This document shows, piece after piece, positions 6,379 through 46,932 of a stretch of 64,000 bases of DNA (position 1 is its first letter; every line of letters begins with the position of its first letter). The notes beneath the pieces were generated by a model. That model ran no database searches and was not told the origin of the DNA. It worked only from the letters and a program-made list of their open reading frames with translations. The translations under genes and the position numbers were made by a program. Source of the DNA: Chloroflexota bacterium (GTDB taxonomy: Bacteria; Chloroflexota; JAJPGV01); contig JBOGTU010000077.1 of assembly GCA_050695655.1 (NCBI GenBank), positions 20,397 through 84,396 on the forward strand. Reading direction: 5' to 3'.

Positions 6379-7197
6379 CTAGCCAGGAGTCGGGGGTGGA
6401 ACTGCTGGCCGCCATAGGGTGTAGGCCACCACGACAGCCAAGCCGGCCAGCGGAATTGAGAGCGCGAAGAGCGCCCAGTGCAGCTGCGACCAGCCACCCA
6501 GGGCCGCGCCGCCCACGTAGGCCAGGCACATGGCCATGTACAGCACGGCACGCCGCGGCGCGGGCTGCCGGAGAGAGGTGCGCAGCAGCGAGCCAACCGC
6601 TGGGCGGCGGCGAGGCAGGCGATCTACCAGCCAGTAGCCATACTCGACCACCCCTTCGGCCATGTCGGTGAGCATCCCGGTCACGAACGTGGTGCGCACG
6701 GTGTGCTGCCCCACCCGCCGAACCGTCGCATTCTGGACGCCCAACGCCAGCGTGGGCAAAGCCAGCAGCAGGTAAAAGCGCCAGCCGTCCGCCGGCCGCC
6801 CGGACCCGTGCAGGGCTGTTTCACCCAGCGCGAGGAAGGCCACCAGGAGCGCCGCTTCCAGCATGAACACGGCGGCACGTCGCGACCGTGTCCCGTGCCG
6901 AATGCCCTGCTCGCCGAAGGCCGCACCCAGTGCTACGCCGAGCACGAAGAGGGGGATGGGGAAGGCCCGCAGAAGCACGGCGGCATAATCCCCCTGCCCG
7001 AGATGAAAGCCCAGCCTGATGCTGTTGCCACTCTGGTGACCGCTGAAGACGTGGAACATGGTGAGGTAAACGACACTGTCCGTGGCCCCGGCAATCCAGG
7101 CCAGCCACGCGGCCAGCCAGGCCTGCCCCGCCTCACGGTCCGAGCCCGTGCCAAACGAAACAGCCATCGTGTGGCTTTCCTGCAAGCGGCGGGCCAT
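6379..7197 (-). CDS. DUF1275 (YoaK-like) family membrane protein
   Basis: Multi-TM protein with the HVFSGHQSGN motif typical of DUF1275/YoaK. Divergent from ftsH. Confidence 0.6.
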   Translation of the reverse strand: MARRLQESHTMAVSFGTGSDREAGQAWLAAWLAWIAGATDSVVYLTMFHVFSGHQSGNSIRLGFHLGQGDYAAVLLRAFPIPLFVLGVALGAAFGEQGIRHGTRSRRAAVFMLEAALLVAFLALGETALHGSGRPADGWRFYLLLALPTLALGVQNATVRRVGQHTVRTTFVTGMLTDMAEGVVEYGYWLVDRLPRRRPAVGSLLRTSLRQPAPRRAVLYMAMCLAYVGGAALGGWSQLHWALFALSIPLAGLAVVVAYTLWRPAVPPPTPG

Positions 7198-7266
7198 AGC
7201 CGCCGCTTGAAGGAGTGCCGAGCGGGCACTAGGTTTGGCACGAAGGTTGCACTACTCTTTCTTGAG

Positions 7267-9504
7267 ATGGATGTCGATCCCGCGCCCGCATCCCGCCGGG
7301 GGTGGTTCATGGATGTCATCCGGGCCGCAACGCGGTGGCCGACTAAACTGAGTCGTGGGCCTGCGCCAACACCTCAGCGCGACATGCATCCCTGGATGAG
7401 AGCACAGGATCCGGCTGGCGGCCAGCGACCCAATGCGCCCCAGCCGCCACCACGCCGCGGCTGGTGGTTCAACCTGTGGTGGGTCGTGGCATTGGGCATC
7501 CTCATCTGGAACTTCAGCAGCCTGGTGAGCAGCAAACCCACCACGAATCCGGTGCTGAATCTGCCCTACAGCGTCTTCCTCCACCAACTCAACGGCGGCA
7601 ACGTATCCTCCGTGTCGTTTCAGGGCAACGACGTGAGCGGGCGGTTGAAGCAGGTCGTCACCTACAACCCCTCCAGCAGCGCTGTTGTGGCCGGCCCCGG
7701 CGCGGCAACGAGCCCCTCGGCCTCGGCCAAGCCATCGGCCTCGGCGAGCGCCAGCCCGGCGGCGTCCGCCGCGGCGAGCTCGAGCAGCCCGAAGCCGAAC
7801 CAGCAGTCCGATCGCTTCCAGACGCTGCTGCCCAGCTTTGGCGATCCCAACCTGCTGCCCAAGCTGGAGGCGCAGAACGTGCAGATTAAGGTCAACCCGC
7901 CGTCAAACCAGTCCGCCTGGCTGCTCGTGCTGGAGAACGTGCTCCCCTGGCTGCTGCTCATCGGCCTGTTCTTCTTCATGACGCGCAAGGCGGGGGCGGC
8001 GCAGCAGGGCATTTTCAGCTTCGGCAAGAGCAAGGCACGGCGTTACCAGCACGGCGAGCAACGCATCACTTTTGACGACGTGGCCGGCGTGGCTGAGTCC
8101 AAGGCCGACCTGATGGACATCATCGATTACCTGCGTTTCCCCAAAAAGTACACCCGCTTGGGTGGCCGGGTGCCGCACGGCGTGCTGCTCGTGGGCCAGC
8201 CCGGCACCGGCAAAACGCTGCTGGCGCGAGCGACCGCGGGCGAGGCCAACGTGCCCTTCTTCAGCATCAGCGGCCCGGAGTTCGTGGAGGTGCTGGTGGG
8301 CGTGGGTGCATCACGCGTGCGTGACCTGTTCGAGACAGCCAAGAAGGAAGGGCCAGCGATTATCTTCATCGATGAGATCGATGCCATTGGCCGCCGCCGT
8401 GGCGCGGGTCACGGCCTGGGCAGCAACGAGGAGCGCGAGCAGACCCTGAACCAGATCCTGGTTGAGATGGATGGCTTCGACGCAACGCACACAGTGATTG
8501 TGCTCGCCGCGACCAACCGGGCCGACGTGCTGGACCCGGCGCTGCTGCGCCCCGGCCGGTTCGACCGGCAGGTGACGGTAGACCGGCCGGATAGGACGGG
8601 CCGCGAGGCCATCCTCCGGGTGCACGCACAGCGCGTGCCGTTGCACGCCGATGTGGACCTACGCGCCATAGCTCGCGGAACACCCGGCATGGTGGGCGCG
8701 GATCTGGCCAACCTGGTGAACGAGGCCGCGCTGCTGGCGGCGCGCAACAGCGCTGATAAGGTGTCGCAGCAATGCTTCTGGGAGGCGTTGGAAAAGATCC
8801 AGCTGGGTGCCGAGCGGCCACTGGTGCTGAGCCAGGAGGATCGCCGCATTGTGGCCTACCATGAAAGCGGGCATGCGCTGGTGGCGCTCCTCTCGCCCAA
8901 CGCCGATCCCCTGAACCGCGTCACCATATTGCCCCGCGGGCACGCCCTGGGCGTGACGCTGCAGCTGCCCATGGATGACCGCTACAACTACAGCAAGGAT
9001 TACCTGATGACGCGCATCTCCGTGGCGCTGGGTGGCCGCGTGGCGGAGGAGACCATCTTCAACCAGGTCACCACTGGCGCCGAGAACGACCTGGACATGG
9101 TGTCGCGCATCGTGAAGCAGATGGTCACCCGCTGGGGAATGAGCGAACGCGTGGGCCTGCTTGTCCAGGCCGACCATCAAGGCGAGGAGCTGGGCCTGCT
9201 GGGCAGCAAGGACACCAGCGAGTATCTGGCGAAACAGGTTGACTCGGCCATGCAGGAGATCATCAAGGAGCGACTGGCCTACACCCGCGCCATGCTCAAG
9301 GAGAATGTGGAGCGGCTGCACCAACTGGCCGCGCTGCTGCTGGAGCACGAGTCTGTGGATGCCGAGGAGATTCGTAACAGGCTGGGCCTCAACCCACCGC
9401 CGCCCGATAGCCCCCCGCCGCGCGTGGAATCCATGGAAACGCCCCCTGTTACCGCGGATGTGCCATTCGTCCCCGTTGCCTCGCATAGCAAGCAGGCTCA
9501 ATAA
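7267..9504 (+). CDS. ftsH: ATP-dependent zinc metalloprotease FtsH
   Basis: Walker A GQPGTGKT, second region of homology, and HEAGH zinc site (HESGHALV). The ORF-track N-terminus (from 6478) overlaps the opposite-strand DUF1275 gene, so the start was moved to the first ATG after it. ATG 7384 is an alternative start. The periplasmic region carries an Ala/Ser/Pro-rich insert. Confidence 0.85.
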
Positions 9505-9600: not shown

Positions 9601-10287
9601 ATGACCATCCTCGAGCACCTCGAGGAGCTGCGCTTCCGCCTCACCATCTCGGTCATCGCCATTTTGCTGGGCATGATTCCCGGCTGGTTTCTGTCGGACG
9701 GCGTCATCAGCCTGCTCCGGCAACCGATTGCTGAGCTGGGCCCGTTGAACGTGCTGGGCGTGACCGGCATGTTCACACTGCGGCTCAAGGTGGGGGCGAC
9801 GCTGGCCGTATGCTTCGCCTTCCCGGTGCTGTTTTCGCAGATCTGGGCCTTCGTTGCGCCCGGCCTCACTCGCCGGGAGCGCCGGCACAGCCTGCCCTTC
9901 ATCGTCCTGGGCACGGTGCTGTTCGTGGCGGGCGTGTACACCGGGTACCGCATCGTGCCACTGGCAGTGAACTTCCTCCTCAGCTTCACGGACGCCAACC
10001 TGCGGCCCATGCTGGTGGCGGATCAGTACGTCGGCTTCGTGGCCATCGTGGCGCTCATCTTCGGTGTGTCCTTTGAGCTGCCCATGGTGCTGCTTTTCCT
10101 GTGCAGCATCAACGTCATCAGCTCTGGCTGGCTGCTCAAGAAGCTGAAGTTCGCCATCATCATCATCTTCATCGTGTCCACCATCATCACGCCGGGCGCG
10201 GACCTGGTGTCGCCCGTGGTGCTGGGCGTCATTCTGAGCGCGCTGTACCTGCTGGCCATCGTTCTGGCGAAGATCATCGGGAAGTAG
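9601..10287 (+). CDS. tatC: Twin-arginine translocase subunit TatC
   Basis: MTILEHLEELRFRL... is the typical TatC N-terminus, followed by six TM helices. GGAGAAG RBS 7 nt upstream of ATG 9601. The longer ORF from 9535 is also possible. Confidence 0.85.
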   Translation: MTILEHLEELRFRLTISVIAILLGMIPGWFLSDGVISLLRQPIAELGPLNVLGVTGMFTLRLKVGATLAVCFAFPVLFSQIWAFVAPGLTRRERRHSLPFIVLGTVLFVAGVYTGYRIVPLAVNFLLSFTDANLRPMLVADQYVGFVAIVALIFGVSFELPMVLLFLCSINVISSGWLLKKLKFAIIIIFIVSTIITPGADLVSPVVLGVILSALYLLAIVLAKIIGK

Positions 10288-10296
10288 GGCCGCGGC

Positions 10297-11766
10297 ATGC
10301 CCACCGGCCTGGTGCTCGGCTGTTTGCTGCCACACCCACCGGTGCTGCTGCCGGAGGTAGGCGGCGCCATGGCGAGGCCGGTACAACCCACTGTGGACGC
10401 CATGCGCCAGGTGGGGCGCCGCATCGCCGCCCACGAGCCGGATGTAGTGATTGTGCTCAGCCCGCATGGCCCGCTGCTGGCCGACCGCATGGGCATTGGC
10501 CTCAGCCCGGCCGCCAGGGGCGACTTCGCCAGCTTCGCTGCTCCCCAGGTGCAGCTGTCCGCGGAGTGCGACGTTGCCCTGGCCGAGGCACTTCAGGCGG
10601 CCTGTGCTCGTTCGGCGCTTCCGCTCGCCGCGGTTGATGCCCTCACTGGCCCGCCCCGTGAACCGGGCGTGTACCGCCTGGACCACGGAGCGGCCGTTCC
10701 GCTGCACATTCTGCAGCCGCTGATGGGCCGCGTGCCGGTGGTGCTCCTGGGTTTTTCCGCGCTGCCACGGGCCACGCATCGCGCCTTTGGCCAGCGCATT
10801 CGGGATGTTTGCGAGGCCAGCAGCAAGCGGGTGGTGTTCGTGGCCAGCGGCGATCTCTCGCACCGCCTCACGCCGGCCGCGCCAGCCGGGTACGACCCGC
10901 GTGGCCAGGTGTTTGACGATGCTGTGCTGGCTGCCGTGTCGGCGGGCGACTGGGAGGCGCTGGCGAGCATCCCGGAGGAGCTCGTGGAGGCCGCTGGCGT
11001 GTGCGGGTATCTTTCGCTGCTCACGCTGAGCGCCGCCCTGGGCGAGGCGCCGGCCAGCAGTCACGTGCTGAGCTACCAGGGCACCTACGGGGTGGGCTAC
11101 GCCGTGGCCGAGATGGTCCCAGTAGCGCCGCGGCCCGGCGTCACCCGGGGTGCGGCCGGCACCATGGAACCCCTCAACCAAACCGAGCCCGCTGGCAGCG
11201 GCGGCTTCGTGTTCCCCGAGGGCACGCCGGGCGAGCAGATGCTGGCCCTGGTGCGCGCGACGCTCGCGGCGTACACCGCGCGGAGAGATCGGTTGCAGCT
11301 CCCGAACGCCCTGCCCGCTGCGCTCGCGGAAGCCGGGGCCTGCTTCGTCACACTGCGCTCGCGGGGCCAGCTGCGTGGCTGCGTGGGCACCATCCTCCCG
11401 GTGCAGCGCAGCCTCGCCGCCGAGATCGTCGAGAATGCGATTGGAGCCGCCTCACGGGACCCGCGCTTTCTGCCGCTGCACGCCTCCGAGCTGCGCGGGC
11501 TGAGCTGTTCGGTGGACGTGCTCACTCCTCCTGAACCCATCACCTCGATGGATGCACTGGACCCTCAGCGCTTCGGCCTGATCGTGGTGCAGGAGGAGCG
11601 CGTCGGCCTGCTGTTGCCGGAGCTGGCGGAGATCACGACAGTGGATGCGCAGTACCTCGCCTGCCTGCAGAAGGCGGGCATCACCAATCCCACCAATGTC
11701 GCCCTCTACCGCTTCGAAGCAACGCGCTACGCGGAGCCGGAGCCGGCCAAAACCTCTGCGCAGTGA
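10297..11766 (+). CDS. Two-domain protein: N-terminal class III extradiol dioxygenase-like (LigB/MEMO1 superfamily) domain fused to a C-terminal AMMECR1 domain, matching AmmeMemoRadiSam system protein B plus protein A
   Basis: N-terminal half has LPHPPVLLPEVGG, VIVLSPHGP and SGDLSHRL motifs (LigB/Memo-like). C-terminal half has ACFVTLRSRGQLRGCVGTILP...RDPRF (AMMECR1 core). 489 aa. Confidence 0.65.
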   Translation: MPTGLVLGCLLPHPPVLLPEVGGAMARPVQPTVDAMRQVGRRIAAHEPDVVIVLSPHGPLLADRMGIGLSPAARGDFASFAAPQVQLSAECDVALAEALQAACARSALPLAAVDALTGPPREPGVYRLDHGAAVPLHILQPLMGRVPVVLLGFSALPRATHRAFGQRIRDVCEASSKRVVFVASGDLSHRLTPAAPAGYDPRGQVFDDAVLAAVSAGDWEALASIPEELVEAAGVCGYLSLLTLSAALGEAPASSHVLSYQGTYGVGYAVAEMVPVAPRPGVTRGAAGTMEPLNQTEPAGSGGFVFPEGTPGEQMLALVRATLAAYTARRDRLQLPNALPAALAEAGACFVTLRSRGQLRGCVGTILPVQRSLAAEIVENAIGAASRDPRFLPLHASELRGLSCSVDVLTPPEPITSMDALDPQRFGLIVVQEERVGLLLPELAEITTVDAQYLACLQKAGITNPTNVALYRFEATRYAEPEPAKTSAQ

Positions 11767-11772
11767 AGACCT

Positions 11773-12906
11773 TCAGCTGGGGCGCGAGATGCCCACAGGC
11801 CGGGCACGCTCGTGCAGGCGGCGGCGCGCCCACAGATCCACCTCAAGGATGTCGCCCAGGGTTGGGCTGGGCAGGCTTTCATGCTCGGTGAGCAGCTCCT
11901 CCACCAGGCGCGGGATGTCCAGAAAGCCGATCTGCTCCTCCAGGAACAGCTGCACCGCCTCTTCATCCGCCGCCGCCAGCACTGTGGGGTAGGTTCCGCC
12001 GCGGGTGCCGGCCTCCTTGGCCAGGCGCAGGCAAGGGAAGCGGCCGGCATCCACCTCCTCGAACGTGAGGTCGCGCGCGGCTACCTCCAGGCGCGGACTG
12101 CTGAGCGGCAGCCGCCGCGGATAGGCAATGGCGTAGGCAATGGGCACGCGCATGTCAGGCACGCCCAGCTGCGCCTTGATGGACCCGTCCACAAACTCCA
12201 CCATGGAGTGCACGATGGACTGCGGATGAATCACGGCATCCACGCGCGAGAGGGGCAGGTCGAACAGGTGGCGCGCCTCCAGCAGCTCCAGCCCCTTGTT
12301 CATGAGCGTGGCGGAATCAATCGTGATCTTGCGGCCCATCACCCAGTTGGGGTGCTTGAGCGCTTCGGCCGGGGTCACGCCGGCGAAGCGCTCAATCGGC
12401 AGGGTGCGGAAGGGCCCGCCCGAGGCGGTGAGCAGCAGCCGTTGGACGCTCTCGGAGCTCTCGCCAGCCAGGCACTGCCAGATGGCGCTGTGCTCGCTAT
12501 CGATGGGGTACACGCGTGCGCCGGTGGCCTTGGCCTGCCGCATCACCAGGTCGCCGGCCATGATCAGCGTTTCCTTGTTGGCGAGCGCCACATCCGTGCC
12601 GTGGGCCAGCGCGGCCAGCGTGGGCTCGAACCCCACCTTGCCCGAAGTGCCTACCACCACCAGGTCCAGGTCGTCGCGCTGAGCCAGAGCCTTCAGCTCC
12701 TCGGCAGACGTAGCCACCACGGCCGGCCGAAAGCGCTGAGTCTGCTGCTCCAACAGCGCCGAGAAGCGTGACGCCGCCAGCCCCACAACCTGGAATTGGT
12801 CGGGAAACTGGCTCACCACATCCAGCGTCTGCGTGCCGATGGAGCCGGTGCTGCCAAGGATTGCCAGTCGCTTGGGCTTGCCCTCGGCCAGACCCTCATT
12901 TGTCAC
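11773..12906 (-). CDS. dxr: 1-deoxy-D-xylulose 5-phosphate reductoisomerase
   Basis: LAILGSTGSIGTQTLDVV NADPH-binding N-terminus. GTG start at 12906 chosen, because the long ORF-track extension would overlap cdsA and has no homology. Confidence 0.85.
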   Translation of the reverse strand: MTNEGLAEGKPKRLAILGSTGSIGTQTLDVVSQFPDQFQVVGLAASRFSALLEQQTQRFRPAVVATSAEELKALAQRDDLDLVVVGTSGKVGFEPTLAALAHGTDVALANKETLIMAGDLVMRQAKATGARVYPIDSEHSAIWQCLAGESSESVQRLLLTASGGPFRTLPIERFAGVTPAEALKHPNWVMGRKITIDSATLMNKGLELLEARHLFDLPLSRVDAVIHPQSIVHSMVEFVDGSIKAQLGVPDMRVPIAYAIAYPRRLPLSSPRLEVAARDLTFEEVDAGRFPCLRLAKEAGTRGGTYPTVLAAADEEAVQLFLEEQIGFLDIPRLVEELLTEHESLPSPTLGDILEVDLWARRRLHERARPVGISRPS

Positions 12907-16482: not shown

Positions 16483-17319
16483 CTATTCGGCAGCGGCGGC
16501 CACTGGCTCCGCGTAGCCCTCGGCCGGCGGCACGTATTCGTCGCCCGGCTCGGCCACGTATTCGCCCGCATTCTGGTACTCCTCGTAGGCCGCCGCGATC
16601 TCGGCCTCCGCCTCTTCCTCCTTGCGCATGGCCTCGGCTTCGGCCTGGCCTTCGAGCACCGCGTCGGCGATCTTGGAGGTGAGCAGCTTCACCGCGCGAA
16701 TAGCATCGTCGTTGGCGGGAATGCCCCACTGGATCTCGTCCGGATCGCAGTTAGTATCCAGAAGCGACACGATCGGGATGCCGAGGCGGTTCGCCTCCTT
16801 TACGGCGATGTGCTCCTTGCGCGTATCGATGACGAACAACATGGACGGCAGCCGCTTCATCTGCCGCACCCCGCCCAGGATGCGATTCAGTTTGGACATC
16901 TCGTCCTGCAGCTTGAGCGTTTCCTTCTTGGTGAGCAAGTCGAACTCGCCCTTGGCTTTGCGCTCCTCCAGCTCGGTAAGGCGCCGCAACCGCTGCTGTA
17001 TGGTCTGGAAATTGGTGAGCATGCCACCCAGCCAGCGCTGGTTCACGAAGAACATGCCGCAGCGTTGCGCTTCGTCCTGCACCGACTCCTGTGCCTGCTT
17101 TTTGGTGCCCACGAAGAGCACCGTCTCGCCGTTGCGCGCCTGCTCCTTCACGTGGTTGTAGGCCTGGGTGAGCTTGGTCACCGTTTGTTGCAGGTCGATG
17201 ATGTGGATGCCATTGCGCTCGGTGAAGATGTAGCTCTTCATCTTGGGGTTCCAGCGCTTGGTTTGGTGCCCAAAGTGCACCCCTGCTTCCAGCAGCAGCT
17301 TCATGGAGACGATAGCCAT
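16483..17319 (-). CDS. rpsB: 30S ribosomal protein S2
   Basis: [25 protein letters not shown]. Start refined to ATG 17319, with AGGAG RBS upstream. Has an acidic C-terminal tail. Confidence 0.9.
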
Positions 17320-17415
17320 AGGTTTGCTTACTCCTGTGTGTTTAACCTCCGCCCTTGGCGCCGGCACCCCGTGAGGCACGCCCCGGCAGCCAGTGGTTGG
17401 GCGTGTGTACTTCGA

Positions 17416-18225
17416 CTACGCAGTATAGCGCTGGGCCGCTGGCTTCCCCGCGACGTCCACACGCGTGATGGTGAGGAAGGCGACGGCGACGACAATGAGC
17501 AGCGACAGGACGGGAGCAACCCGCTGGTCGCCCCAGCCCAGGCCGCCCAGATATGGCTTGCCGGTCCAATCCGCGAAGGTGGCGCCCAGCGGGCGGGTGA
17601 TGACATAGGCGCACCAGAACGCGAACACCGCGTTGATGCGCAGGTAGCGGAAGCCCAGCGCCGGCAGCGCAATGAGCACCACGAACAGGACCAGCGAAGG
17701 AAAGTACCCCAGGCCCAGCGTGGCCGCGGTAAGGTCACCCGCGGCGGTGCCCAGTGCGAACGTGGCCATCACCGTCGCCCAGTAAAAGAGCTCGCGCCGC
17801 CCACCGGTGATGGTGTGGATAGAGAGCGATTTCTCGCTGGCGTACCAGATGGCGAAGACGATCGCTAATATCGCCGCGAAAAAGATGGACGACGCCAAGT
17901 AGGGGACACCCAGCACCACGTGCAGTACGTCGGCTGCCATGGTGCCGAACACCGCGACCATGGCTACCGCCAGCCAGTAAATCCAGGGCACGTAGCGGCG
18001 TACCGCGAGCTGCAGCGCCAGCGCCACCGCCAGCGCTACGCAGCCCAGCACCACCGCCACGTACGGGTTGATCTGATAGACGAGGTAGTCGGATGTGGAT
18101 TCGCCCATGGCCGTGGTGAGCAGCTTGACGATCCAGAAGTACGCGGTCACCTCGGGCACCTTGCGCAGCGCCCCCGCCGCCAGCCCGCGCGACACACCCA
18201 ATTCTCCCGCCATGATCTTCCTCAC
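17416..18225 (-). CDS. Membrane protein with internal repeats (DUF347-like repeat family)
   Basis: Repeated motif AYFWIVKLLTTAMGESTSDYL / FWCAYVITRPLGATFADW within TM segments. Confidence 0.5.
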   Translation of the reverse strand: MRKIMAGELGVSRGLAAGALRKVPEVTAYFWIVKLLTTAMGESTSDYLVYQINPYVAVVLGCVALAVALALQLAVRRYVPWIYWLAVAMVAVFGTMAADVLHVVLGVPYLASSIFFAAILAIVFAIWYASEKSLSIHTITGGRRELFYWATVMATFALGTAAGDLTAATLGLGYFPSLVLFVVLIALPALGFRYLRINAVFAFWCAYVITRPLGATFADWTGKPYLGGLGWGDQRVAPVLSLLIVVAVAFLTITRVDVAGKPAAQRYTA

Positions 18226-18274
18226 CCTGAAGAAACGGGCCGCCAGCCGATGGCGAATGGCTCGACGAGCACCC

Positions 18275-19771
18275 TCACAGAATGTACTTGCCCAGATCCT
18301 GATCCTTCAGCAGGTCAGCGAGCCGCGCCTGCACATACGGGCGGTCCACCACAATGGTCTCGTCGGCGTGGTTGGCGGCGCCGAAGGACAGCTCCTCCAG
18401 CACGCGCTCCATCACTGTGTTCAGTCGCCGCGCGCCGATGTTCTCATGGCGCTCGTTGGCCAGCACCGCCACGTGCGCAATCTCCTCCAGACCATCGTCG
18501 CTGAACTGCAGCGTCACCTGCTCCACGGAGAGCAGCGCCTGGTACTGACGCGTGAGGGCATTCTCCGGCTCACGCAGGATGCGCAGGAAGTCCGCCTCAG
18601 TGAGCGGGCTCAGCTCCACCCGCAGCGGGAAGCGGCCCTGCAACTCGGGGATGAGGTCGTTGGGCTTGGCGTTGTAGAAGGCGCCCGCGGCGATGAACAG
18701 CATGTGATCCGTTTTCACCGGCCCGTAGCGCGTCATCACCGTGGAACCCTCGATCACCGGCAGCAGGTCGCGCTGCACCCCTTCGCCCGAAACGTCCACG
18801 TTGGCCTCGTGGCCTACGCGCGCGATCTTGTCGATCTCGTCGATGAAGACGATGCCGTCCTCCTCTACGCGGCGGGTGGCGCTTTCCACGACGCCGTCCC
18901 AGTCCACCAGCTTGTTGGCCTCCTCCACCGTGAGGATGCGCCGTGCCTCTTTCACGGATACCTGCTTGGCCCGGCGGCGGCCCTGGCTGACCTGGCTCAT
19001 GATCTCCTGGATGTTTTCCGTCACTTCTTCGGGCGTCATGCCGGATATGAACTCGAATACCGGCGGGAGGCCCTCATCGGAATCCGTCTCGATCTCAATG
19101 ATCTGCTCTTCCAGGCGGCTGGCGCTGAGCGCAGCGGAGATGGCGCGGCGGCGCCGCCGGATGCGCGCCTGCTCGCGCTTGGCCGTGCTGGTGGCCTGAC
19201 CTTCCGGCGTGGCAACCGGATCAGGCTCATTGATCGCGACAGCGCCGGCTTCAGTTGCCACACCAGCTTCATTTGCAGCGTTTACTTCGCTTGCGGCGCC
19301 GGCATCGCTCGGCGCGTTGGATGCGGGGAGCTGGCGCTGCTTGGAGAGCAGCGCCGTGATGATGCGCTCCTCGGCCAGCGCCTGGGCGCGGTCCTGCACC
19401 TCGGCCGTCTTGGCCTCGTGCACCATGTTGACGGCCAGTTCCACGAGGTCGCGGATGATGGAATCCACATCGCGGCCCACGTAGCCCACCTCGGTGAACT
19501 TGGTGGCATCGGTCTTGAGGAAGGGTGCGCCGGCCAGCTTGGCCAAGCGCCGGGCCAGCTCGGTTTTCCCCACACCGGTGGGCCCGATCATGATCATGTT
19601 CTTGGGCATGATCTCGCCGGCCATCTCGTCCGGCAGCTGCCTGCGGCGGTAGCGGTTGCGCAGGGCAACGGCCAGCGCACGCTTAGCCTCGGACTGGCCC
19701 ACCACATAGCGATCCAGCTGCTCCACTATGCGCTGAGGCGTAAAAGCATCCGCCGAGGCTCTATCAGCCAT
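18275..19771 (-). CDS. hslU: ATP-dependent protease ATPase subunit HslU
   Basis: Walker [10 protein letters not shown], sensor and I-domain. Start refined to ATG 19771 ([26 protein letters not shown]). Overlaps the hslV stop by 8 nt. Confidence 0.9.
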
Positions 19772-20321
19772 GGGAGTTGAGGACCTCAATGGAAATGTTG
19801 CGGTTGGTGTACACGCACAGTTGAGCCGCCGTTTCCAGGGCGATGCGGGCAATCTCGCTCGCCGGCAGCGACGAATGCGCGAGCAGTGCTATGGCGGCCG
19901 CTGTGGCATAGCCGCCGCCGGAGCCAATGGCGGCCACTTGATCGTCCGGCTCGATGACGTCGCCTTCACCGGAGAGCACCAACAAGTTGGAAGCGTCCGC
20001 CACCAGCAGCATGGCTTCCAGCCTGCGCAGAAAGCGATCGCCCCGCCATTCGCGCGTCAACTCAACAGCCGCGCGGCGGGTATTGCCGCCGTGCTGCTCC
20101 AGCTGGGCTTCGAACTTGTCGAACAGGGTGAGGGCATCTGCCACGGACCCGGCGAACCCTGCCAGCACCTGGCCGCGGTACAGCCGGCGCAGCTTTTTGG
20201 CGCCGTGCTTCATCACCATGTCGTTCACGGTTACTTGCCCGTCACCCGCCATGGCCACCTCTTCCCGAGCACGGACGGCCACAATTGTGGTGGCATGGAT
20301 CCGCCCCCCGACCCCTACCAT
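19764..20321 (-). CDS. hslV: ATP-dependent protease subunit HslV
   Basis: N-terminal TTIVAVR (catalytic Thr after propeptide removal) and GSGG motifs. Confidence 0.85.
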
Positions 20322-26156: not shown

Positions 26157-26942
26157 TTACCAAAATCTCCCAATCAGCCCCCAGAGGGCGGCCGCGCGCT
26201 CCGGAGAACTCGTGGGATCGATGACGCAGCGGCAGGTGCGCGTGTAGGAGCCAATGGTTTGCAGATCGGAGCGCGCCGAGGGCCAGGCCCAGGGGCTGCC
26301 GGCGCGATCCCGCAGAAGCAGCTGCGCTTCGGCCCGGCCGATCGGGACGGCGCGGCGCAGCAAGCCGGATCGGACGGTACCGGCAAATACCCAGAAGCCG
26401 TCCCACCAGCGCGGGTCGGCCAGTGCGCGGCGGATGTGCGCGTTCGCGCCGAAGCGACGCATCTCCTCTGGCGCGGGCCGAGCGCGCACGTTGGGCAGGA
26501 TCGCTTCGACCTCCAGGATGCCGACCAAAGCGAACAGCGGCCCGGCCCCGCCGTGCAGCCGGGCGATGAAGACGATGCAGTCACCAGGGCGCACCTGGCG
26601 CAGTGCTGCCGCCCGCGCAGCGCGGCTGCAGTTGTCGCCATAGGTGCGCGTCTCGAACTCGGGATCGTAGTGCGTGGCCTGGGCATGCCGGCGCTCGGGT
26701 ACCAGGGTGGCCAGATCAGGCACGCTGCCGTAGGTGCGCAGACTTGCGCCACTCAGGCCGGCCGGCTCCGGGATCGTTACCAGCGTAAAGGTGCCATCGG
26801 CGTGGAGGGGGCTCCGGAGCCGGTGGCTCGCGTTCACGCCCACGTTGGCCAGGTAGATCTTGCCGGCGGGGACAGCTCCCCCAACCGCCCAGGCCGCCGG
26901 CCTCGGCTGAGATGCTGGCGTGAGCGCTCCGCTGCCAGACAT
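26157..26942 (-). CDS. Conserved hypothetical protein (261 aa, cytosolic; function unknown)
   Basis: N-terminal motif KIYLANVGVNASHRLRSPLHADGTFTLVTIPE. C-terminal TCRCVID. Resembles the nucleotide-modification-associated Nmad3-type N-terminus, but this could not be verified. Confidence 0.45.
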   Translation of the reverse strand: MSGSGALTPASQPRPAAWAVGGAVPAGKIYLANVGVNASHRLRSPLHADGTFTLVTIPEPAGLSGASLRTYGSVPDLATLVPERRHAQATHYDPEFETRTYGDNCSRAARAAALRQVRPGDCIVFIARLHGGAGPLFALVGILEVEAILPNVRARPAPEEMRRFGANAHIRRALADPRWWDGFWVFAGTVRSGLLRRAVPIGRAEAQLLLRDRAGSPWAWPSARSDLQTIGSYTRTCRCVIDPTSSPERAAALWGLIGRFW

Positions 26943-26979: not shown

Positions 26980-28134
26980 GTGCTCCGCCTGTACAACAGC
27001 CTCAGCAAGCGCGTGGAGCCGTTCGAAGCGGCGGGCTCGCCCATCAGCCTCTACGTCTGCGGTGTCACCCCGTACGACACCACGCACGTGGGCCATGCCT
27101 TTCTGTACATCGTGTTCGACGTGCTCAGCCGCTACCTGCGCTTCGCCGGGCACAGCGTGCGCTACGTCTCCAACATCACCGACGTGGACGACAGCATTCT
27201 TGAGCGCGCACGCCAGCGCGGGGTGGATTACCGCGACCTGGGCGATCAGCAGACGCGCCAATTCCTGCAGGATATGCAGGCCCTGAACATCAGCCCGCCG
27301 GACGTGCGGCCACGCGCCTCTGAAGAGATCCCCAAGATGGTTGAGATTGTGACCCATCTGCTGGCCGAGGGTGTGGCCTACGCGGTGGATGGCTGGGTGT
27401 ACTTTCACGCCGGCGCATACCCCGCTTACGGCCAGCTGGGGGGCTATTCGCGGCAGGAGATGATCGCCCTCGGCGCGGAGCGTGGTGGCGATCCCAACGA
27501 CCCCCGCAAACAGGACGCGCTGGATTTTGTGCTGTGGCAGCCCTCCCAGCCGGACGAGCCGCGCTGGCACGCGCCGTGGGGCACTGGCCGTCCCGGCTGG
27601 CATTTGGAGTGCAGCGCCATGTCGCTGCGCTACCTGGGCGACACGATCGACATTCACGGTGGTGGAGCGGACCTGGTGTTCCCCCACCACGAGAGCGAGA
27701 TCGCGCAGTCCGAGCTGCACACAGGGGTGCAGCCCTTCGCGCGGCTGTGGATGCACGTGGGCATGGTGCGGCTGCACGGCGAAAAGATGAGTAAATCGCT
27801 GGGCAATCTGGTGCTCGCACGGGAACTGCTGGAGCGCCACTCGGCCGCCGCGGTGCGCCTGCACTTGCTGAGCTTCCCCTATCGCGACGGCTGGGACTTC
27901 GCTGAAGCCGCCATGGCGCCGTACGATGAGCTGGCCGCGCAGGTCGCCCAGCTGCGCCGCCCGGCCGAACACCAGCTGGCCGCGGGCGATGCCTTTGTCG
28001 CCGCCCTGGATGACGACATGGATACCCCACGCGCCATCACCGTGCTGCGCCAATGTGTGGATTCCGCTCGGCAAGGCAACGCCCAAGCCGCCGACCGCCT
28101 TTCCACTTACGCGGACATTCTCGGCCTGAGCTAG
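26980..28134 (+). CDS. Class I CysS-family ligase without anticodon-binding domain; MshC-like (L-cysteine:GlcN-Ins ligase) rather than canonical cysteinyl-tRNA synthetase
   Basis: HVGH (HIGH) and KMSKS motifs. Zinc ligands (C in [11 protein letters not shown] in GWHLEC, H..E in [15 protein letters not shown]). [21 protein letters not shown] insert typical of MshC. Only 384 aa, too short to hold the C-terminal DALR/anticodon-binding domain of CysRS. Confidence 0.6.
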
Positions 28135-35861: not shown

Positions 35862-37412
35862 ATGAAACAGTCGCAAAATCCTGCCGAACGAATCATCCGC
35901 CGCTTTGGCGGGCAGAGCTCCCTGGCGACGTTGCTGGGAAAACGCCAGAGCACTGTGCAGCACTGGGCATCTACCGGGCGCATTCCGGCGCAGTGGCACC
36001 AGCCACTGATCGCACTCGCCCGCCGGCAGGCCATTGCGCTTGAGGCCAAGGACTTTGTTGAGGCCGCGGCGCCCTCTATCGCGCCGGCTGAGGGGCGGCT
36101 GGGTGTGCTGCTGGTAGGTTTGGGCGCGGTTGCGTCCACACTCATCGCTGGGGTAGAGCACGTCAGGCGGGGCACAGGTGTGCCGGTGGGCTCGCTCACG
36201 CAGATGGGCACTATTCGCCTGGGCCGGCGCGACGAGAAGCGCAGCCCCTACATCAAGGATTTCGTGCCGCTGGCCTCGCTGGATCAGCTGGTCTTCGGCG
36301 CCTGGGACCCCTTCCCGGATAACGCCTACCAGGCCGCTGTCAAGGCGGGGGTACTGGACCGCCACAAGCACATCGAGCCCATCGGCGGTGCGCTGAAGGA
36401 GATCGAACCCATGGCCGCCGTGTTCGATCAGCACTACGTGAAGCGCTTGAACGGCAGCAACGTGAAGCCCGCCAGGTCCAAGCGAGAGCAGGTGGAGAGC
36501 ATCCGCAAGGACATCCGCGACTTTCAAGACATCAATGGCTGCAGCCGGTTGGTGATGGTATGGTGCGCCTCTACCGAAATCTTCCTTGAGCCGGGCCCAC
36601 AGCACCAGACGCTGGCCGCTTTCGAGGAGGCGCTGGCCAGGGACGATCCAGCTATCGCTCCCTCCATGCTCTACGCGTACGCCGCGCTGCAGGAAGGTGT
36701 CCCCTTTGCCAACGGCGCCCCCAACCTGACGGTGGACATTCCAGCGCTGGTGTCGCTCGCGACGAGCAGAGGCCTGCCCGTGATGGGCAAGGACTTCAAA
36801 ACCGGCCAAACGCTGATGAAGACGGTCATCTCGCCCATGCTCAAGGCCCGTATGCTTGGGCTGCGCGGCTGGTACTCCACCAATATCCTGGGTAACCGCG
36901 ACGGCGAAGTGCTGGATGACCCCGAGAGCTTCCGCACCAAGGAGGAATCGAAGCTGGGCGTCCTGGAGCACATTCTGCAGCCGGCGCTGTATCCCGAACT
37001 GTACGGCGACGTCTACCACAAGGTGCGCATCAACTACTATCCGCCCAGCGGCGACAGCAAAGAGGGCTGGGACAACGTGGACATCTTCGGCTGGCTGGGC
37101 TATCCCATGCAGATCAAGATCGACTTCATGTGCCGCGACTCCATCCTCGCCGCGCCGCTGGCCCTGGACCTGGCGCTGTTCATGGACCTGGCGCACCGCG
37201 CCGGGATGAGCGGCATCCAGGAGTGGCTGTCGTTCTACTTCAAGAGCCCGCAGCATCCGCCCTCGGTGTACCCGGAACACGACCTGTTCATCCAGCAGAC
37301 CAAACTCAAGAACACCCTGCGCTGGCTCATGGGTGAGGAGCAGATCACGCACCTAGGCCTGGAATACGCCCAGGAATCCGCCAACGCTGAGGAGCTGGCC
37401 GCCAGCGCGTAG
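35862..37412 (+). CDS. ino1: myo-Inositol-1-phosphate synthase with an in-frame N-terminal Cro/YdaS-like helix-turn-helix extension
   Basis: The MIPS core runs from RLGVLLVGLGAVASTLIAGV (NAD-binding) to the C-terminus. The first ~65 aa (GGQSSLATLLGKRQSTVQHWASTGRIPAQWHQPLIALARRQ) match the YdaS/Cro HTH pattern. No in-frame stop or canonical internal start separates the two parts. Confidence 0.75.
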   Translation: MKQSQNPAERIIRRFGGQSSLATLLGKRQSTVQHWASTGRIPAQWHQPLIALARRQAIALEAKDFVEAAAPSIAPAEGRLGVLLVGLGAVASTLIAGVEHVRRGTGVPVGSLTQMGTIRLGRRDEKRSPYIKDFVPLASLDQLVFGAWDPFPDNAYQAAVKAGVLDRHKHIEPIGGALKEIEPMAAVFDQHYVKRLNGSNVKPARSKREQVESIRKDIRDFQDINGCSRLVMVWCASTEIFLEPGPQHQTLAAFEEALARDDPAIAPSMLYAYAALQEGVPFANGAPNLTVDIPALVSLATSRGLPVMGKDFKTGQTLMKTVISPMLKARMLGLRGWYSTNILGNRDGEVLDDPESFRTKEESKLGVLEHILQPALYPELYGDVYHKVRINYYPPSGDSKEGWDNVDIFGWLGYPMQIKIDFMCRDSILAAPLALDLALFMDLAHRAGMSGIQEWLSFYFKSPQHPPSVYPEHDLFIQQTKLKNTLRWLMGEEQITHLGLEYAQESANAEELAASA

Positions 37413-42678: not shown

Positions 42679-43071
42679 TCATGTGGCCAGCTTGTCCATC
42701 TTCCGGATCACCCGCTTCAGGCGCTCCAGCTCCCGTTCGTGCTCCTCCTGGAATTGCCGCAAGGCCGCTTCGTGTTCGCGCTGCAGGCGCTCCACGCGGT
42801 CGCCCATGTTGAGAATGACTTCCACGCCAGCGAGGTTCACCCCCAGCTCGTCGATGAGGCGTTGTATCTGGACCAGCCGCTCAATGTCCTCGTCGGAGTA
42901 GAGCCGGATGTTGCCCCCCGTTCGTGCTGGATTAACGAGACCGATACGCTCGTAGTGACGAAGCGTCTGCGGGTGCACGTGGACGATGCGCGCGGCCACG
43001 CTGATGACGTAGTGCGAACCGACAACTGCCGGCTGCTCCTCAGCGGCACTCAGCTCGCGGCGCCTCAGCAT
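42679..43071 (-). CDS. hspR: Heat-shock transcriptional repressor HspR (MerR family)
   Basis: MerR HTH (ISVAARIVHVHPQTLRHYERIGLV). Last gene of the dnaK operon. Start refined to ATG 43071. Confidence 0.8.
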   Translation of the reverse strand: MLRRRELSAAEEQPAVVGSHYVISVAARIVHVHPQTLRHYERIGLVNPARTGGNIRLYSDEDIERLVQIQRLIDELGVNLAGVEVILNMGDRVERLQREHEAALRQFQEEHERELERLKRVIRKMDKLAT

Positions 43072-43225
43072 GCGGCCGCCTCGGCGGGGGGCGCCGCGAG
43101 ACGCTTGGCCGGAACCATGCCGCGGCCGGAGTTGGATAGCCCAGGAACGGTCGCTGCAATTCGAGCTGGCTGCCGCGGAGAGGTGGCCGAGGGCCACTTC
43201 CGGCGAGGCGGCCAAAGTTCCAGGC

Positions 43226-44290
43226 TCACAGTGGACCCTCGCGGTGCTTCTTCAATTCCTGGAAGAGATCGCGCTCGCGAGCCGAGAGGTTGGTGGGTAG
43301 GATGACGCGCACCTTGGAGTACAGGTCGCCCTGCTCGTCACCGCGCAGCGCGGGCAGCCCCTGGCCGGTGAGGCGAAAAGTGCGGCCGTTCTGGGTTTCC
43401 GGCGGCACACGCATGCTCAAGCGGGTGCCCTTGAGAGTGGGCACCTCCACTTCGCCGCCCAGTACCGCCTTGAGCAGTGGCACAGGCACCTCCACGTACA
43501 GGTCATTGCCCTTGCGGTCGAACGTCGGGTGTGGCTGCACCTTGACGACCAGGTACAGGTCGCCCTTAGGGCCGCCGGTCGCGCCGGGGTTGCCCTCGCC
43601 ACTCAGCTTAATGCGCGACCCGTCGCGCACGCCGGGCGGAATCTTCACGTCGATGCGCCGGGCACGGGTCACGGTGCCGGCGCCCTGGCAGGTGGTGCAC
43701 AGCTTGCCATTCACCAGCGCGCTGCCGTGGCAGGTAGGGCACAGCTCCGGGATTTGGATGCTGAAGATGCGGTTGCCGCCGGAGAACACCTCCTCCAGTG
43801 TGACCTCGATGGGTTGCTCGATGTCGCCGCCGCGGGACGGCGGGGCCTCGGGCCGCGGCCGCGCGGCGGGAACTCCGTAGCCAGTGGCCGCGGCCCGCTC
43901 CGCCGCGGCGCCCTGGCCGAACAGTGCTTCGAAGAACTCTGAAAAGCCCGAACCCATGCCCCGAATCGTTGTCTCGGCTTCGAACTCTTTGGCAAAGTCG
44001 CGCGTGGTGTAGGCGTGCGGCGCGTTGCGGGGGCCGTAGCGGCCCTCGTGCCAGAAGCTGCCGTTGCGCAGGCTGGGGCCGAATTGGTCGTACTTCTTGC
44101 GTTTCTCAGGATCGCCCAGCACGGCGTAGGCCTCGCCGATCTCCTTAAAGCGATCCTCCGCTTTCGCGTCGCCAGGGTTGACGTCCGGATGGTACTTGCG
44201 GGCGAGGCGCCGATAGGCCTGCTTGATTTCCTTTTCAGGTGCGCCTTTGGCGACACCCAGGGTCTTGTAGTAATCCTTGTAATCCACCAT
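43226..44290 (-). CDS. dnaJ: Chaperone DnaJ (reduced zinc-finger: two CxxC pairs)
   Basis: J-domain DYYKTLGV...HPD. G/F region. CPTCHGS...CTTCQGAG. C-terminal substrate-binding domains. Confidence 0.85.
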   Translation of the reverse strand: MVDYKDYYKTLGVAKGAPEKEIKQAYRRLARKYHPDVNPGDAKAEDRFKEIGEAYAVLGDPEKRKKYDQFGPSLRNGSFWHEGRYGPRNAPHAYTTRDFAKEFEAETTIRGMGSGFSEFFEALFGQGAAAERAAATGYGVPAARPRPEAPPSRGGDIEQPIEVTLEEVFSGGNRIFSIQIPELCPTCHGSALVNGKLCTTCQGAGTVTRARRIDVKIPPGVRDGSRIKLSGEGNPGATGGPKGDLYLVVKVQPHPTFDRKGNDLYVEVPVPLLKAVLGGEVEVPTLKGTRLSMRVPPETQNGRTFRLTGQGLPALRGDEQGDLYSKVRVILPTNLSARERDLFQELKKHREGPL

Positions 44291-44304
44291 CTACTTCCTC
44301 GCCA

Positions 44305-45012
44305 TCACGCCCGCTCGCTTGGGCTGTGCCGCCGAGGAACAGCTCCCGCTACCGTCACCCTCGCCGGACGCAGCACCTCGTTTTCGTAGTACCAGCCCTT
44401 CTGCAGCTCGGCTGTCACGATGCCCGGCTCGGACTTGCCGCTGGTATCGATGTCCACCGCCTCATGAATCTTGGGGTCGAAGACACGCCCCACCGCTTCC
44501 ACCGGGCGCAGGCCCTCGCCCTCCAGCAGGTCGTTCAATTGCCAGTAGGTGAGGCGCAGCCCCGCTACCAGGCCGGCCGGATCGGTCACGGCGGTGTGCT
44601 CGTATTCCATTGCGCGCGCCAGGTTATCGAGCACGAGGAGCGCCTTGGAGAGGAGCGCTTTGCGGCCACTCTTAGCCTGCTCGGTTTGCGCGCGCTCGAT
44701 GCGCCTGCGCGAGGTCTCGCTGTCGGCGCCACCAAGCGGCTGGCGCTGCTCTCCCTCCTCGGCCTGCGTGGCCGCTTCGCGGGCCTGTTTCCGAGCGTCG
44801 GTGGCTTGCCTTTTGGCCTCAGCCGCGCTGGCTTGCGCCTGCTCCGCCACAGCGTTAGCCTGGGCGGCGGCCTGGCGCGCCTGGGCCACCTCCGCCCGCG
44901 CCTGCGCCAGCGCCGCCTCCAGGTCGCGGATGCGTTCCGCGGCCTGGTTCCGAGTGGAGGCCAGTTCTCCGCGCAGCCGCTGTATGCGGTTGGCGGCTTC
45001 GAAATCCATCAT
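44305..45012 (-). CDS. grpE: Nucleotide exchange factor GrpE
   Basis: Coiled-coil N-terminus and the C-terminal GrpE signature. Confidence 0.8.
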
Positions 45013-45030
45013 CGCGGTTCAGCGCTCAGC

Positions 45031-46932
45031 TCAGTGCTCGTCGGTGGTGCGAAACTCGGCGTCGATGACGTCGTCATGGGCGGGCTCGCGGTGGCGCTCC
45101 GGCTCGGAGCTGGGGCCGGACTCCGGCGCAGGTGCGTCGCGCAGGGCAGAGGTGAAGCGCTGCAGCGTATCCTGCAGCTCGTCCACCGCGCTCTTCAGGC
45201 GCGGCACGTCGTCGGTGCGCAGGGCCTCCTTCACCCGCTCCAACGACCGCTCCACCGCGGCGCGCGTCTCCGGCGTGGCGCGGTCACCGGCGTCCTTCAG
45301 GGCGCGCTCGGTGGTGTACACCAGGCTGTCCGCGTGGTTGCGGACCTCGGCCAGCTCGCGCCGGCGCTTGTCCTCGGCGGCGTTGGAAGCTGCCTCGCGC
45401 ACCATGCGGTCGACATCGTCCTTGCTCAGGTTGGTGGTCGCGGTGATGGTCACCTTCTGCTCGCGGCCCGTGGCCATGTCCTTGGCGGACACGTTTACGA
45501 TGCCGTTCACATCAATGTCGAAGGTCACCTCCACTTGCGGCACGCCGCGGGGCGCGGGGGCAATGCCATCGAGCCGGAACTTGCCCAGGGTGCGATTGTC
45601 GGTGGCCATCTCACGCTCACCCTGGAGCACGTGCACGTCGACCGCCTGCTGGTTATCCTCGGCGGTGCTGAATGCTTCAGATTTGCGCGCCGGAATGGTG
45701 GTGTTGCGATCGATGAGCCTGGTCATCACGCCGCCCAGCGTTTCCACGCCCAGGGAGAGCGGCGTCACATCCAGCAGGACTACGTCCTTCACCTCGCCAC
45801 TCAGCACACCGGCCTGGATGGCGGCGCCTACGGCCACCACTTCGTCCGGGTTCACGCCCTGGTGGGCGTCCCTGCCGGTGAGGCTCTTCACCAGTTGCTG
45901 AATCACCGGCATGCGCGTGGCGCCACCTACCAGCACCACTTCGTTGATGTCGCGCTCGGCCAGGCCGGCATCCTGCAGCGCCTGCTTGAAGGGGCCCACA
46001 GTGCGGTCGGTCAGGTCCGCGGTCAACTCCTCGAAGCGTGCCCGCGTGAGCTGAATCTGCAAGTGTTTGGGGCCGTTCTGGTCGGCGGTGACGAAGGGCA
46101 GGTTCACCTCGGTGGTCACCACGGAGGAGAGCTCGATCTTGGCCTTTTCGGCCGCTTCCAGCAGCCGCTGCAGCGCCTGGCGGTCTTTGCGCAGGTCGAT
46201 GCCCTCGTTCTTCTGGAACTCGCTGGCCAGGTAGTCCACAATGCGCTGGTCATAGTCATCGCCGCCCAGGTGCGTGTCGCCATTGGTGGCTTTCACTTCG
46301 AACACGCCGTCGCCCACTTCCAACACCGACACGTCGAAGGTGCCGCCGCCAAGGTCCCACACGAGGATGGTCTCAGTCTTCTTCTTGTCGAGCCCATAGG
46401 CCAAAGCAGCCGCGGTGGGCTCGTTGATAATGCGCAGCACCTCCAGGCCCGCGACCTTGCCGGCATCCTTGGTGGCCTGGCGCTGGGCATCATTGAAATA
46501 CGCCGGCACGGTGATGACGGCCTGGTTGATGCGCTCGCCGAGGTACTTCTCAGCATCCGCCTTGAGCTTTTGCAGGATCATGGCGGAGATCTCCTCCGGC
46601 ATAAGCTCCCGCCCGGCGTGTGGCAGCTTAATGGTGACGCCGGAGCTCTTGCCCTCTTCTACCTGGTACGGCACGCGCGAACGCTCGGCCGCTACCTCCG
46701 AGAGCTTGCGGCCCATGAAGCGCTTGATCGAGAACACGGTGTTCTCCGGGTTCACCACAGCCTGCCGGCGGGCGAGCTGGCCCACCAACCGCTCGCCGGA
46801 TTTGGTGAAGCCCACCACGGAGGGCGTGGTGCGCCCACCCTCAGCATTTGGAATGACGGTCGGTTCCCCGCCCTCCATGACCGCGATCACCGAGTTGGTC
46901 GTCCCAAGATCGATGCCCACGACTTTTGCCAT
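45031..46932 (-). CDS. dnaK: Chaperone DnaK (Hsp70)
   Basis: [18 protein letters not shown] and EEVD-like acidic C-terminus. 633 aa. Confidence 0.95.

Follow-up and report, generated by a model that had tools for sequence, protein, structure and literature searches.

A short, MshC-related CysRS paralogue of Chloroflexota with a possible role as a cysteine:aminosugar ligase

The stretch analyzed here, a 64,000-nucleotide region of contig JBOGTU010000077.1 from a Chloroflexota bacterium (assembly GCA_050695655.1; hereafter the window), carries on its forward strand a complete gene for a 384-aa ligase (26980..28134; GTG start, TAG stop) that resembles cysteinyl-tRNA synthetase (CysRS). This protein, hereafter the target, is a member neither of the MshC equivalog family nor of canonical CysRS; it belongs to a very large family of short proteins (the short clade), and its nearest characterized relative, judged from its sequence, is MshC, the mycothiol ligase. 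On balance, we regard it as somewhat probable that the target is a tRNA-independent cysteine:aminosugar (or similar small-amine) ligase, a role suggested by fusions and gene linkage of its relatives to PIG-L-family deacetylases; for the target itself, the acceptor class is one that we infer.

Domain architecture and catalytic motifs

The gene was delineated from the list of open reading frames (ORFs), its coding signature and Pfam matches. The coding signature is strong, with GC values of 0.72/0.44/0.84 at the three codon positions in a window of 66% GC, and the product scores 354 bits against Pfam tRNA-synt_1e, the catalytic domain of class I CysRS, aligns with both E. coli CysRS and MshC from residue 1–2, and yields an alignment-based AlphaFold2 (AF2) model with a predicted local distance difference test score (pLDDT) of 94.3. 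The initial annotation had described an ORF of 384 aa with HIGH, KMSKS and the zinc site, and all of these are present. Alignment and column statistics, the latter comparing the short clade and MshC with 180 canonical CysRS, locate the HIGH motif (HVGH, residues 36–39) at 27085-27096, within a GVTPYD...HVGH-AF segment (27061..27102) that also holds P31 (E. coli V32) and F41 in place of R42; zinc ligand C27 lies just upstream of this segment (27058-27060). Further along the gene are DDSILERA (27187..27210) in place of the CysRS 'DDKIIKRA', an MshC-type segment of the connective-peptide (CP) insertion (27475..27540), the cysteine/zinc site with W207, C211, H236 and E240, which includes DIHGGG together with H226, Q243 and S239 (27586..27708), and the KMSKS loop (residues 269–273; 27784..27798). 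The zinc/cysteine site is intact, with C27, C211, H236, E240 and W207 corresponding to C28, C209, H234, E238 and W205 of E. coli CysRS.

The C-terminal end was said in the initial annotation to leave no room for a DALR domain. A helical bundle of the DALR_2 type is in fact retained as a remnant (27904..28131, up to the end of the protein and including DDDMDTP), with a weak Pfam match at residues 338–381 (24.5 bits) and AF2 helices across 309–381, but the anticodon-binding domain beyond the bundle is missing, as claimed: the NCBIfam cysS model is covered only at positions 1–380 of 466, and the terminal ~80-aa domain (Pfam CysS_C) is absent. A tblastn search with canonical C-terminal domains, whose CysS_C seed detects every canonical cysS locus tested, found no free-standing anticodon-binding ORF in the 64-kb window, which rules out a split CysRS; the initial annotation had named such an ORF as a finding that would count against it, and its reading stands on this point. 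A pseudogene or relic is likewise ruled out by the intact ORF, the 92% identity to relative P0001, and the size and conservation of the family; the closest protein to the target is 92% identical and comes from a Chloroflexota metagenome-assembled genome (MAG), and an exact look-up returned no recorded protein identical to the target.

Residues gained and lost together with MshC

Residues 166–177 of the target align residue for residue with M. smegmatis MshC 'AERGGDPDRPGK'. The AERGGDP motif is identical in the two proteins, while the E. coli CysRS sequence at this place is unrelated, and the AERGGDPxDP segment carries an insertion of two residues, for which 97% of the 180 canonical CysRS have a gap. 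In the alignment of 3C8Z and 8HFM with 1LI5, the MshC-type stretch of the CP insertion ends in Q187. The 'ERGGDP...LDFVLW' signature that the initial annotation regarded as characteristic of MshC is thereby upheld in its first half only, for LDFVLW is a normal CysRS motif and M. smegmatis MshC has LDALLW.

Five residues well conserved in canonical CysRS are lost in the short clade: R42 (86% conserved; kept in 4% of the short clade), K73 (96%), K185 (99%), N237 (95%) and N351 (85%). In the target they read F/S/Q/S/D (F41, S72, Q187, S239 and D348). Actinobacterial MshC has lost the same five residues along with the C-terminal domain; at the K73 position it has P, and at the N351 position it shares the D348 state of the target. 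MshC performs the same cysteine adenylation, and therefore the residues lost in both groups are dispensable for that step; by sequence comparison, they are probably tRNA-related. The gains run in parallel: of the 11 residues that the short clade has acquired, nine are the same in MshC, and among these are one insertion position of the two and P32, T36, T43, G170, M259, L274, V275 and D351 (E. coli numbering). At the E. coli V32 site, for instance, 99% of short-clade proteins and 100% of MshC have proline, where 78% of CysRS have V. The target itself has eight of these nine shared residues, with L42 instead of T at E. coli position 43.

Phylogenetic placement and extent of the short clade

The 274 sequences of our neighbor-joining (NJ) tree were drawn from the target family, from an exhaustive search reduced to representatives at 50% identity, and from GTDB genomes (76 named canonical CysRS), with mycobacterial MshC and the PDB sequences of M. 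smegmatis MshC and E. coli CysRS as anchors. A clade of 81 sequences (bootstrap 68 on 367 columns) unites 76 short proteins, the target among them, with actinobacterial MshC, which is nested within the clade as a long, 100%-supported subclade; the catalytic core alone (E. coli residues 1–325) gives the same clade with a bootstrap of 65. The target's own subclade holds nine sequences with 100% support. Canonical CysRS of high-GC Actinobacteria and Chloroflexia fall outside the short clade and MshC, and the grouping is thus not driven by composition. The MshC reference set is shallow, consisting of mycobacterial sequences and one 61%-identity outgroup; an MshC-seeded homolog search returned only mycobacterial MshC, 81–90% identical. 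The phylogeny with CysRS and MshC that the initial annotation had proposed as a check gives a divided answer: the target groups with MshC apart from canonical CysRS (65–68), but it lies outside the actinobacterial MshC subclade. The subclade nearest MshC occurs in a thrS-pgsA-pimA gene context (locus L211), which we take to be the actinobacterial-type cluster of the M. tuberculosis Rv2614c-Rv2610c region. Two 520-aa sequences, P0241 and P0271, are actinobacterial-type MshC (61% identical to M. smegmatis MshC) and exceed the typical MshC length by ~100 residues; the extra length may stem from an insertion in the C-terminal region, to judge by the alignment consensus, and their cluster is abundant, with 134 member sequences.

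The short clade consists of ~380–420 aa proteins whose source labels, which are the names given to MAGs, include Chloroflexota, Chloroflexia, Anaerolineae, Thermomicrobiales, Limnocylindria, Dormibacteraeota, Acidoferrales and an 'Actinomycetes' MAG. With a DNA pattern designed from the AERGGDP-type motif, 120 family loci and no canonical CysRS were recovered from metagenomes; in the first 80 of these loci, the family gene was identified in 76 and an anticodon-binding extension in none. A tblastn search of a plasmid collection yielded only canonical cysS genes and no family member, and a scan of GTDB genomes with the target patterns gave, among the matches listed, mostly canonical CysRS, which served as reference and control loci. 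The N-terminal 'extensions' of relatives P0059 and P0112 and of other long ORFs contain no Pfam domain, and we judge them to be over-called starts in high-GC DNA.

Databases are divided over these proteins: in NCBI they appear as 'cysteine--tRNA ligase' or, with scores below 340 bits, as 'class I tRNA ligase family protein', and JGI annotates most relatives as MshC. Against the curated cutoffs (485.1 bits for MshC TIGR03447; 340 bits for cysS TIGR00435), the target scores 378.9 and 380.1 bits, respectively. Nine other family members score 325–425 bits for cysS and 330–409 for MshC, none of them reaching the MshC cutoff, and a genuine Chloroflexia CysRS (L018, 488 aa) scores 489 for cysS and 248 for MshC. 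Among solved structures, M. smegmatis MshC is the nearest in sequence (323.7 bits, with E. coli CysRS at 310.6). Being below the MshC cutoff, outside the MshC subclade and without the MshC pocket described below, the target is not an MshC equivalog; nor is it a canonical CysRS, given the missing anticodon domain and the loss of invariant residues.

Coexistence with a full-length CysRS was seen on a 4.45-Mb chromosome of 66% GC (L213; ERZ25072999 ctg322049_50x_c, 10001-12636), where a 409-aa family member, P0140 (44% identical to the target), is followed 26 bp downstream on the same strand by a 459-aa CysRS with DALR_2, CysS_C and the canonical residues, 37% identical to P0140. At least one genome thus carries both genes, and the short clade is therefore an ancient paralogue of CysRS. 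The tandem may preserve the ancestral duplication.

Fusion and linkage to PIG-L deacetylases

In both of the known aminosugar-thiol pathways, the cysteine ligase acylates a glucosamine amine that a PIG-L enzyme (MshB or BshB) has set free (PMC9736012). Two short-clade proteins that share 56% identity, P0135 (634 aa) and P0390 (648 aa), are ligases fused to a C-terminal PIG-L domain, and the P0390 gene is intact as an ORF on its contig (L089, 3255-5201), its deacetylase part being diacetylchitobiose-deacetylase-like (128 bits). The simplest reading of such a fusion is that it joins consecutive steps of a pathway. Elsewhere the two activities are encoded by adjacent genes: in L103 (38-1245), a PIG-L gene overlaps the ligase gene by 4 bp and its product is 60% identical to the fused domain of P0135, and in L125 (5552-7489), one lies 12 bp upstream on the same strand (Pfam PIG-L, 103 bits). 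At larger distances, L212 (P0125; ERZ25039504 contig_35940) has, 6 kb away, a full-length MshB-like PIG-L scoring 94.5 bits to M. tuberculosis MshB, and L214 (P0139) has a diacetylchitobiose-deacetylase-like one 5.6 kb away (107 bits). Five PIG-L genes were counted in 1.07 Mb of family loci and none in 1.25 Mb of canonical cysS loci (exposure-weighted p = 0.02; Fisher's test by locus, 0.11). A census of 139 flanking genes showed no enrichment of glycosyltransferases or GNAT proteins, and unannotated neighbors scanned with NCBIfam gave no match.

The best curated thiol-pathway model for the fused PIG-L domains is BshB1, at 90–96 bits and below its cutoff, and the PIG-L domains tested from fusions and operons resemble archaeal diacetylchitobiose deacetylases more than they do MshB or BshB. 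The fusions and operons occur in low-GC organisms (GC 0.40–0.45). In L125, the gene order is a gltX-like gene (N-terminal motif only), PIG-L and ligase. The MshB-like PIG-L of L212 lies near a GCS2-family (glutamate-cysteine-ligase-like) gene (17223-20082), 6–9 kb from the short-clade ligase, and this region could be a small thiol-metabolism neighborhood.

The ino1 gene and the search for mycothiol partners in the window

The initial annotation had placed an ino1 gene about 8 kb from the target and read it as a pointer to mycothiol. The gene is there, a 516-aa ORF (35862..37412, + strand) 7.7 kb downstream, but its presence does not carry that meaning: its product reaches 22 bits on the mycothiol-type (actinobacterial) Ino1 model, against a cutoff of 638. 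Five unrelated genes, with both strands represented, separate it from the target. A blastp comparison found no Ino1 homologue beside the family genes of the first 80 pattern-scan loci (78 with at least two called genes), and in the closest relatives of known gene context, at 72% and 64% identity, the annotated loci likewise have none. Because the Ino1 is of the wrong subtype and is absent from the relatives' flanks that were searched, its proximity is a coincidence, and we rejected it as pathway evidence. The N-terminal ~60 residues of this ORF match the NCBIfam 'carph-isopro' domain (NF046037, 61.6 bits), and its synthase part is far from the actinobacterial type; either the two parts are truly fused or the start is over-extended and takes in a small upstream gene. 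A family 4 glycosyltransferase (GT4) in the window was rejected as MshA (32 bits against a cutoff of 462). The genes of mycothiol synthesis are normally dispersed in genomes.

Proposed reaction

If the favored reading is right, the target would bind L-cysteine through its CysRS-type zinc site (C27, C211, H236 and E240), with W207 packing on the thiol, and would use ATP to form cysteinyl-AMP, a step that we infer because the adenylation machinery is completely conserved. The cysteinyl group would not be passed to a tRNA-Cys recognized through its anticodon; it would be moved onto the free amine of a small molecule, the likeliest acceptor being a glucosamine glycoside (GlcN-X) that a PIG-L-family deacetylase produces and that would be acylated at its 2-amino group. 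The reaction would then be the cysteine-ligation step of a low-molecular-weight thiol of the mycothiol/bacillithiol type. That the product is a precursor of mycothiol itself we consider unlikely. BshC is the enzyme to which cysteine addition in bacillithiol synthesis is genetically assigned, and its sequence is unrelated to those of class I aminoacyl-tRNA synthetases (aaRS). The proposed pathway logic is nonetheless the same as with BshB and BshC, in that a PIG-L deacetylase would expose the glucosamine amine before cysteine is added; the fused PIG-L domains differ from BshB in falling below the BshB cutoffs and in having diacetylchitobiose deacetylases as their closest solved structures. A quite improbable extension is that the short clade is the cysteine ligase of an undescribed cysteinyl-aminosugar thiol, neither mycothiol nor bacillithiol; the acceptor might then be of the GlcN-GlcNAc type or another GlcN-X, as hinted by the diacetylchitobiose-deacetylase-like fused domains, and actinobacterial MshC would be a late specialized offshoot of an older family.

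Weighing the alternatives

A number of observations weigh against the cysteine:aminosugar ligase, in part only against its strict MshC form. To the latter belong the TIGR03447 score and the position outside the MshC subclade. More generally, the target passes the cysS cutoff, and the clade it shares with MshC has only moderate support in an NJ tree with shallow MshC sampling. Of 19 columns that discriminate CysRS from MshC, the target is CysRS-like in 14, MshC-like in two and neither in three. At E. coli positions 224/237/238/241/254, MshC (a mostly mycobacterial set) has Q, F/Y, S, H and Y, while the target has H, S, E, Q and W, including the CysRS-type pocket residues H226, E240, Q243 and W257; the fourth zinc ligand Glu (E. 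coli E238) is among those kept, whereas MshC has Ser there and three protein zinc ligands. The CysRS pocket state holds in every non-actinobacterial short protein, even those that branch beside MshC. The net charge of the target appears like that of high-GC canonical CysRS and unlike the strongly acidic MshC, and the AF2 model fits the MshC and CysRS folds equally well, Foldseek being unable to separate the two (template modeling [TM] score 0.91–0.93 to MshC and 0.87–0.91 to CysRS). As for gene context, the PIG-L-linked members are only 44–53% identical to the target, most linked deacetylases are diacetylchitobiose-deacetylase-like and not MshB-like, and the commonest family neighbors (TatD, S6 and ThrRS) are housekeeping genes. 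A Pfam or NCBIfam scan of ~50 window ORFs revealed no candidate for mshA, mshB or mshD, a seed search found no PIG-L within ±10 kb of the target, and no PIG-L, MshA-like or MshD-like gene or second cysS was found near the closest relatives. Judged from these residue patterns, the switch from the CysRS to the MshC pocket is abrupt, and the short clade looks like an evolutionary intermediate that has lost the tRNA-recognition apparatus with its CysRS pocket intact.

The sub-case in which the target is a true MshC, ligating cysteine onto glucosaminyl-inositol (GlcN-Ins) in a mycothiol pathway that uses the nearby ino1, is unlikely in our view. The two proteins share a CysRS-derived core with HIGH and KMSKS, a length of ~380–410 aa without an anticodon-binding domain, AERGGDP with its 2-residue insertion, the gained residues, the loss of R42/K73/K185/N237/N351, the clade (65–68) and the fold; M. 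smegmatis MshC is the closest solved structure by sequence, JGI labels most relatives MshC, an MshB-like deacetylase lies 6 kb from P0125, the thrS-pgsA-pimA context of the subclade nearest MshC is of actinobacterial type, and an ino1 gene is present in the window. They differ, however, in that identity is only 45%, the equivalog cutoff is missed (379 against 485 bits), the target lies outside the 100%-bootstrap MshC subclade, and its pocket retains Glu as fourth zinc ligand along with H/Q/W, against Ser and Q/H/Y in MshC. The target is also not strongly acidic, comes from Chloroflexota and not Actinobacteria, and has no msh partner detected nearby, the Ino1 and GT4 scores being far below their cutoffs (22 vs 638 and 32 vs 462 bits) and the relatives' flanks searched holding no Ino1 homologue; most linked PIG-L domains are not MshB-like, and complete mshA-D sets are reported only in Actinobacteria (PMC6282198). 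Of the 'possible mycothiol ligase' of the initial annotation, there remains a CysRS paralogue without the anticodon domain that is closest to MshC, while the MshC cutoff, subclade, pocket residues and ino1 do not bear out the mycothiol assignment. We also think it rather unlikely that the target is a minimal CysRS, housekeeping or auxiliary, which charges tRNA-Cys through the acceptor stem and U73 without reading the anticodon; the strongest identity elements of tRNA-Cys are the anticodon GCA and U73 (PMC9976931). Compared with canonical CysRS (TIGR00435; PDB 1LI5 and 1U0B), the fold is similar (TM 0.87–0.91) at ~42–43% identity, the cysS cutoff is passed (380 against 340), the four-ligand zinc site is identical, and H224, Q241 and W254 are kept in a CysRS-type pocket, site and pocket both being fully conserved across the family; the electrostatics appear CysRS-like, the neighbors are translation-related or housekeeping genes (ThrRS, S6, TatD), and the L125 order of gltX-like gene, PIG-L and ligase recalls gltX-cysE-cysS. 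The target departs from canonical CysRS in lacking CysS_C, in the joint loss of R42, K73 (KIIK motif), K185, N237 and N351, as in the tRNA-independent MshC, in its MshC-type insertion and in falling outside the canonical clade. A synthetase fused to a GlcNAc-type deacetylase would moreover be hard to explain, a family member adjoins a full canonical CysRS on one chromosome (L213), and a canonical CysRS also occurs in a Chloroflexia MAG (L018). The 64-kb window contains no second cysS, a result that favors neither side, no tRNA gene, and no T-box or other Rfam element; we rejected T-box regulation of the target for want of an Rfam match, which counts against a minimal CysRS.

A precedent for an RNA-directed enzyme is CysRS* of Desulfobacterales, reportedly described by Mukai et al. 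in 2017. CysRS* is, like the target, a CysRS paralogue that lacks the anticodon-binding domain and coexists with the normal enzyme, and it charges a tRNA, which also lends some support to the minimal CysRS; it is coupled to a dedicated tRNA (SelC*) and SelB* (PMC9437257). It is very improbable, in our estimate, that the target is such an RNA-directed aaRS paralogue, either CysRS*-like for a special tRNA or Glu-Q-RS-like and cysteinylating a modified nucleoside. A catalytic core without anticodon domain parallels Glu-Q-RS and CysRS* (PMC9437257), the CysRS-type, A76-like pocket is retained, and there is suggestive synteny: a gene for nucleotide-modification-associated domain 3 (Nmad3; 26157-26942) lies divergently 37 bp upstream of the target, a pairing kept within the target's own subclade (L082, L083 and L142), and Dormibacteraeota-type loci have QueF, not Nmad3, two genes upstream of the ligase. 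This synteny is lineage-specific and not family-wide, however, and the target has no linked tRNA gene, selB-like gene or RNA element; nor does a tRNA gene or selB-like gene accompany the family gene in nine relatives' loci, save an unrelated tRNA-Glu in L005. The loss of conserved basic CysRS residues speaks against an RNA substrate, and the PIG-L fusions point to a sugar.

Implications for thiol metabolism and annotation

A literature search on mycothiol and bacillithiol in Chloroflexota and on truncated CysRS paralogues found no paper on this family, and no report of the major thiol of Chloroflexota or Dormibacteraeota was found in the literature searched. The family is very widespread, and annotation pipelines give it the putative label of either a tRNA synthetase (NCBI) or MshC (JGI/KEGG). 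Were the target and its relatives cysteine:aminosugar ligases, the thiol-cofactor pathway of several abundant soil phyla would be identified, an evolutionary route from CysRS to MshC would be revealed with the family as intermediate, and thousands of database annotations would be corrected, with an effect on estimates of aaRS copy number in MAGs. Aminosugar-thiol chemistry would be extended to Chloroflexota and related phyla, beyond the Actinobacteria, because complete mshA-D sets have so far been reported only there and mycothiol is regarded as an actinobacterial hallmark (PMC6282198).

Other features of the window

A Pfam and NCBIfam scan of the window ORFs identified the neighbors of the target as housekeeping genes. 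Near it are an operon for the E1a, E1b and E2 components of a 2-oxoacid dehydrogenase and a DUF5010 protein, and on its 3' side follow, in order, a glyoxalase-fold gene, ddl, pcrA/uvrD, fapA, an MTHFR-like gene and ino1. An ORF of 438 aa (51930-53246, - strand) just upstream of fliG (53352-54377) has a strong coding signature and no Pfam or NCBIfam match. A 1008-aa FtsH-type protease ORF (6478-9504, + strand) has ~330 residues without a recognized domain ahead of the FtsH extracellular domain, representing either an over-called start or a genuine extension. On the - strand, a dnaK ... dnaJ - hspR run is followed by lexA (42679-46932), with an ORF at 44305-45012 between dnaK and dnaJ. Actinobacteria are the best-known carriers of this HspR-controlled dnaK-dnaJ-hspR layout, which is found here in Chloroflexota DNA, in a window with flagellar genes (fliG and fapA).

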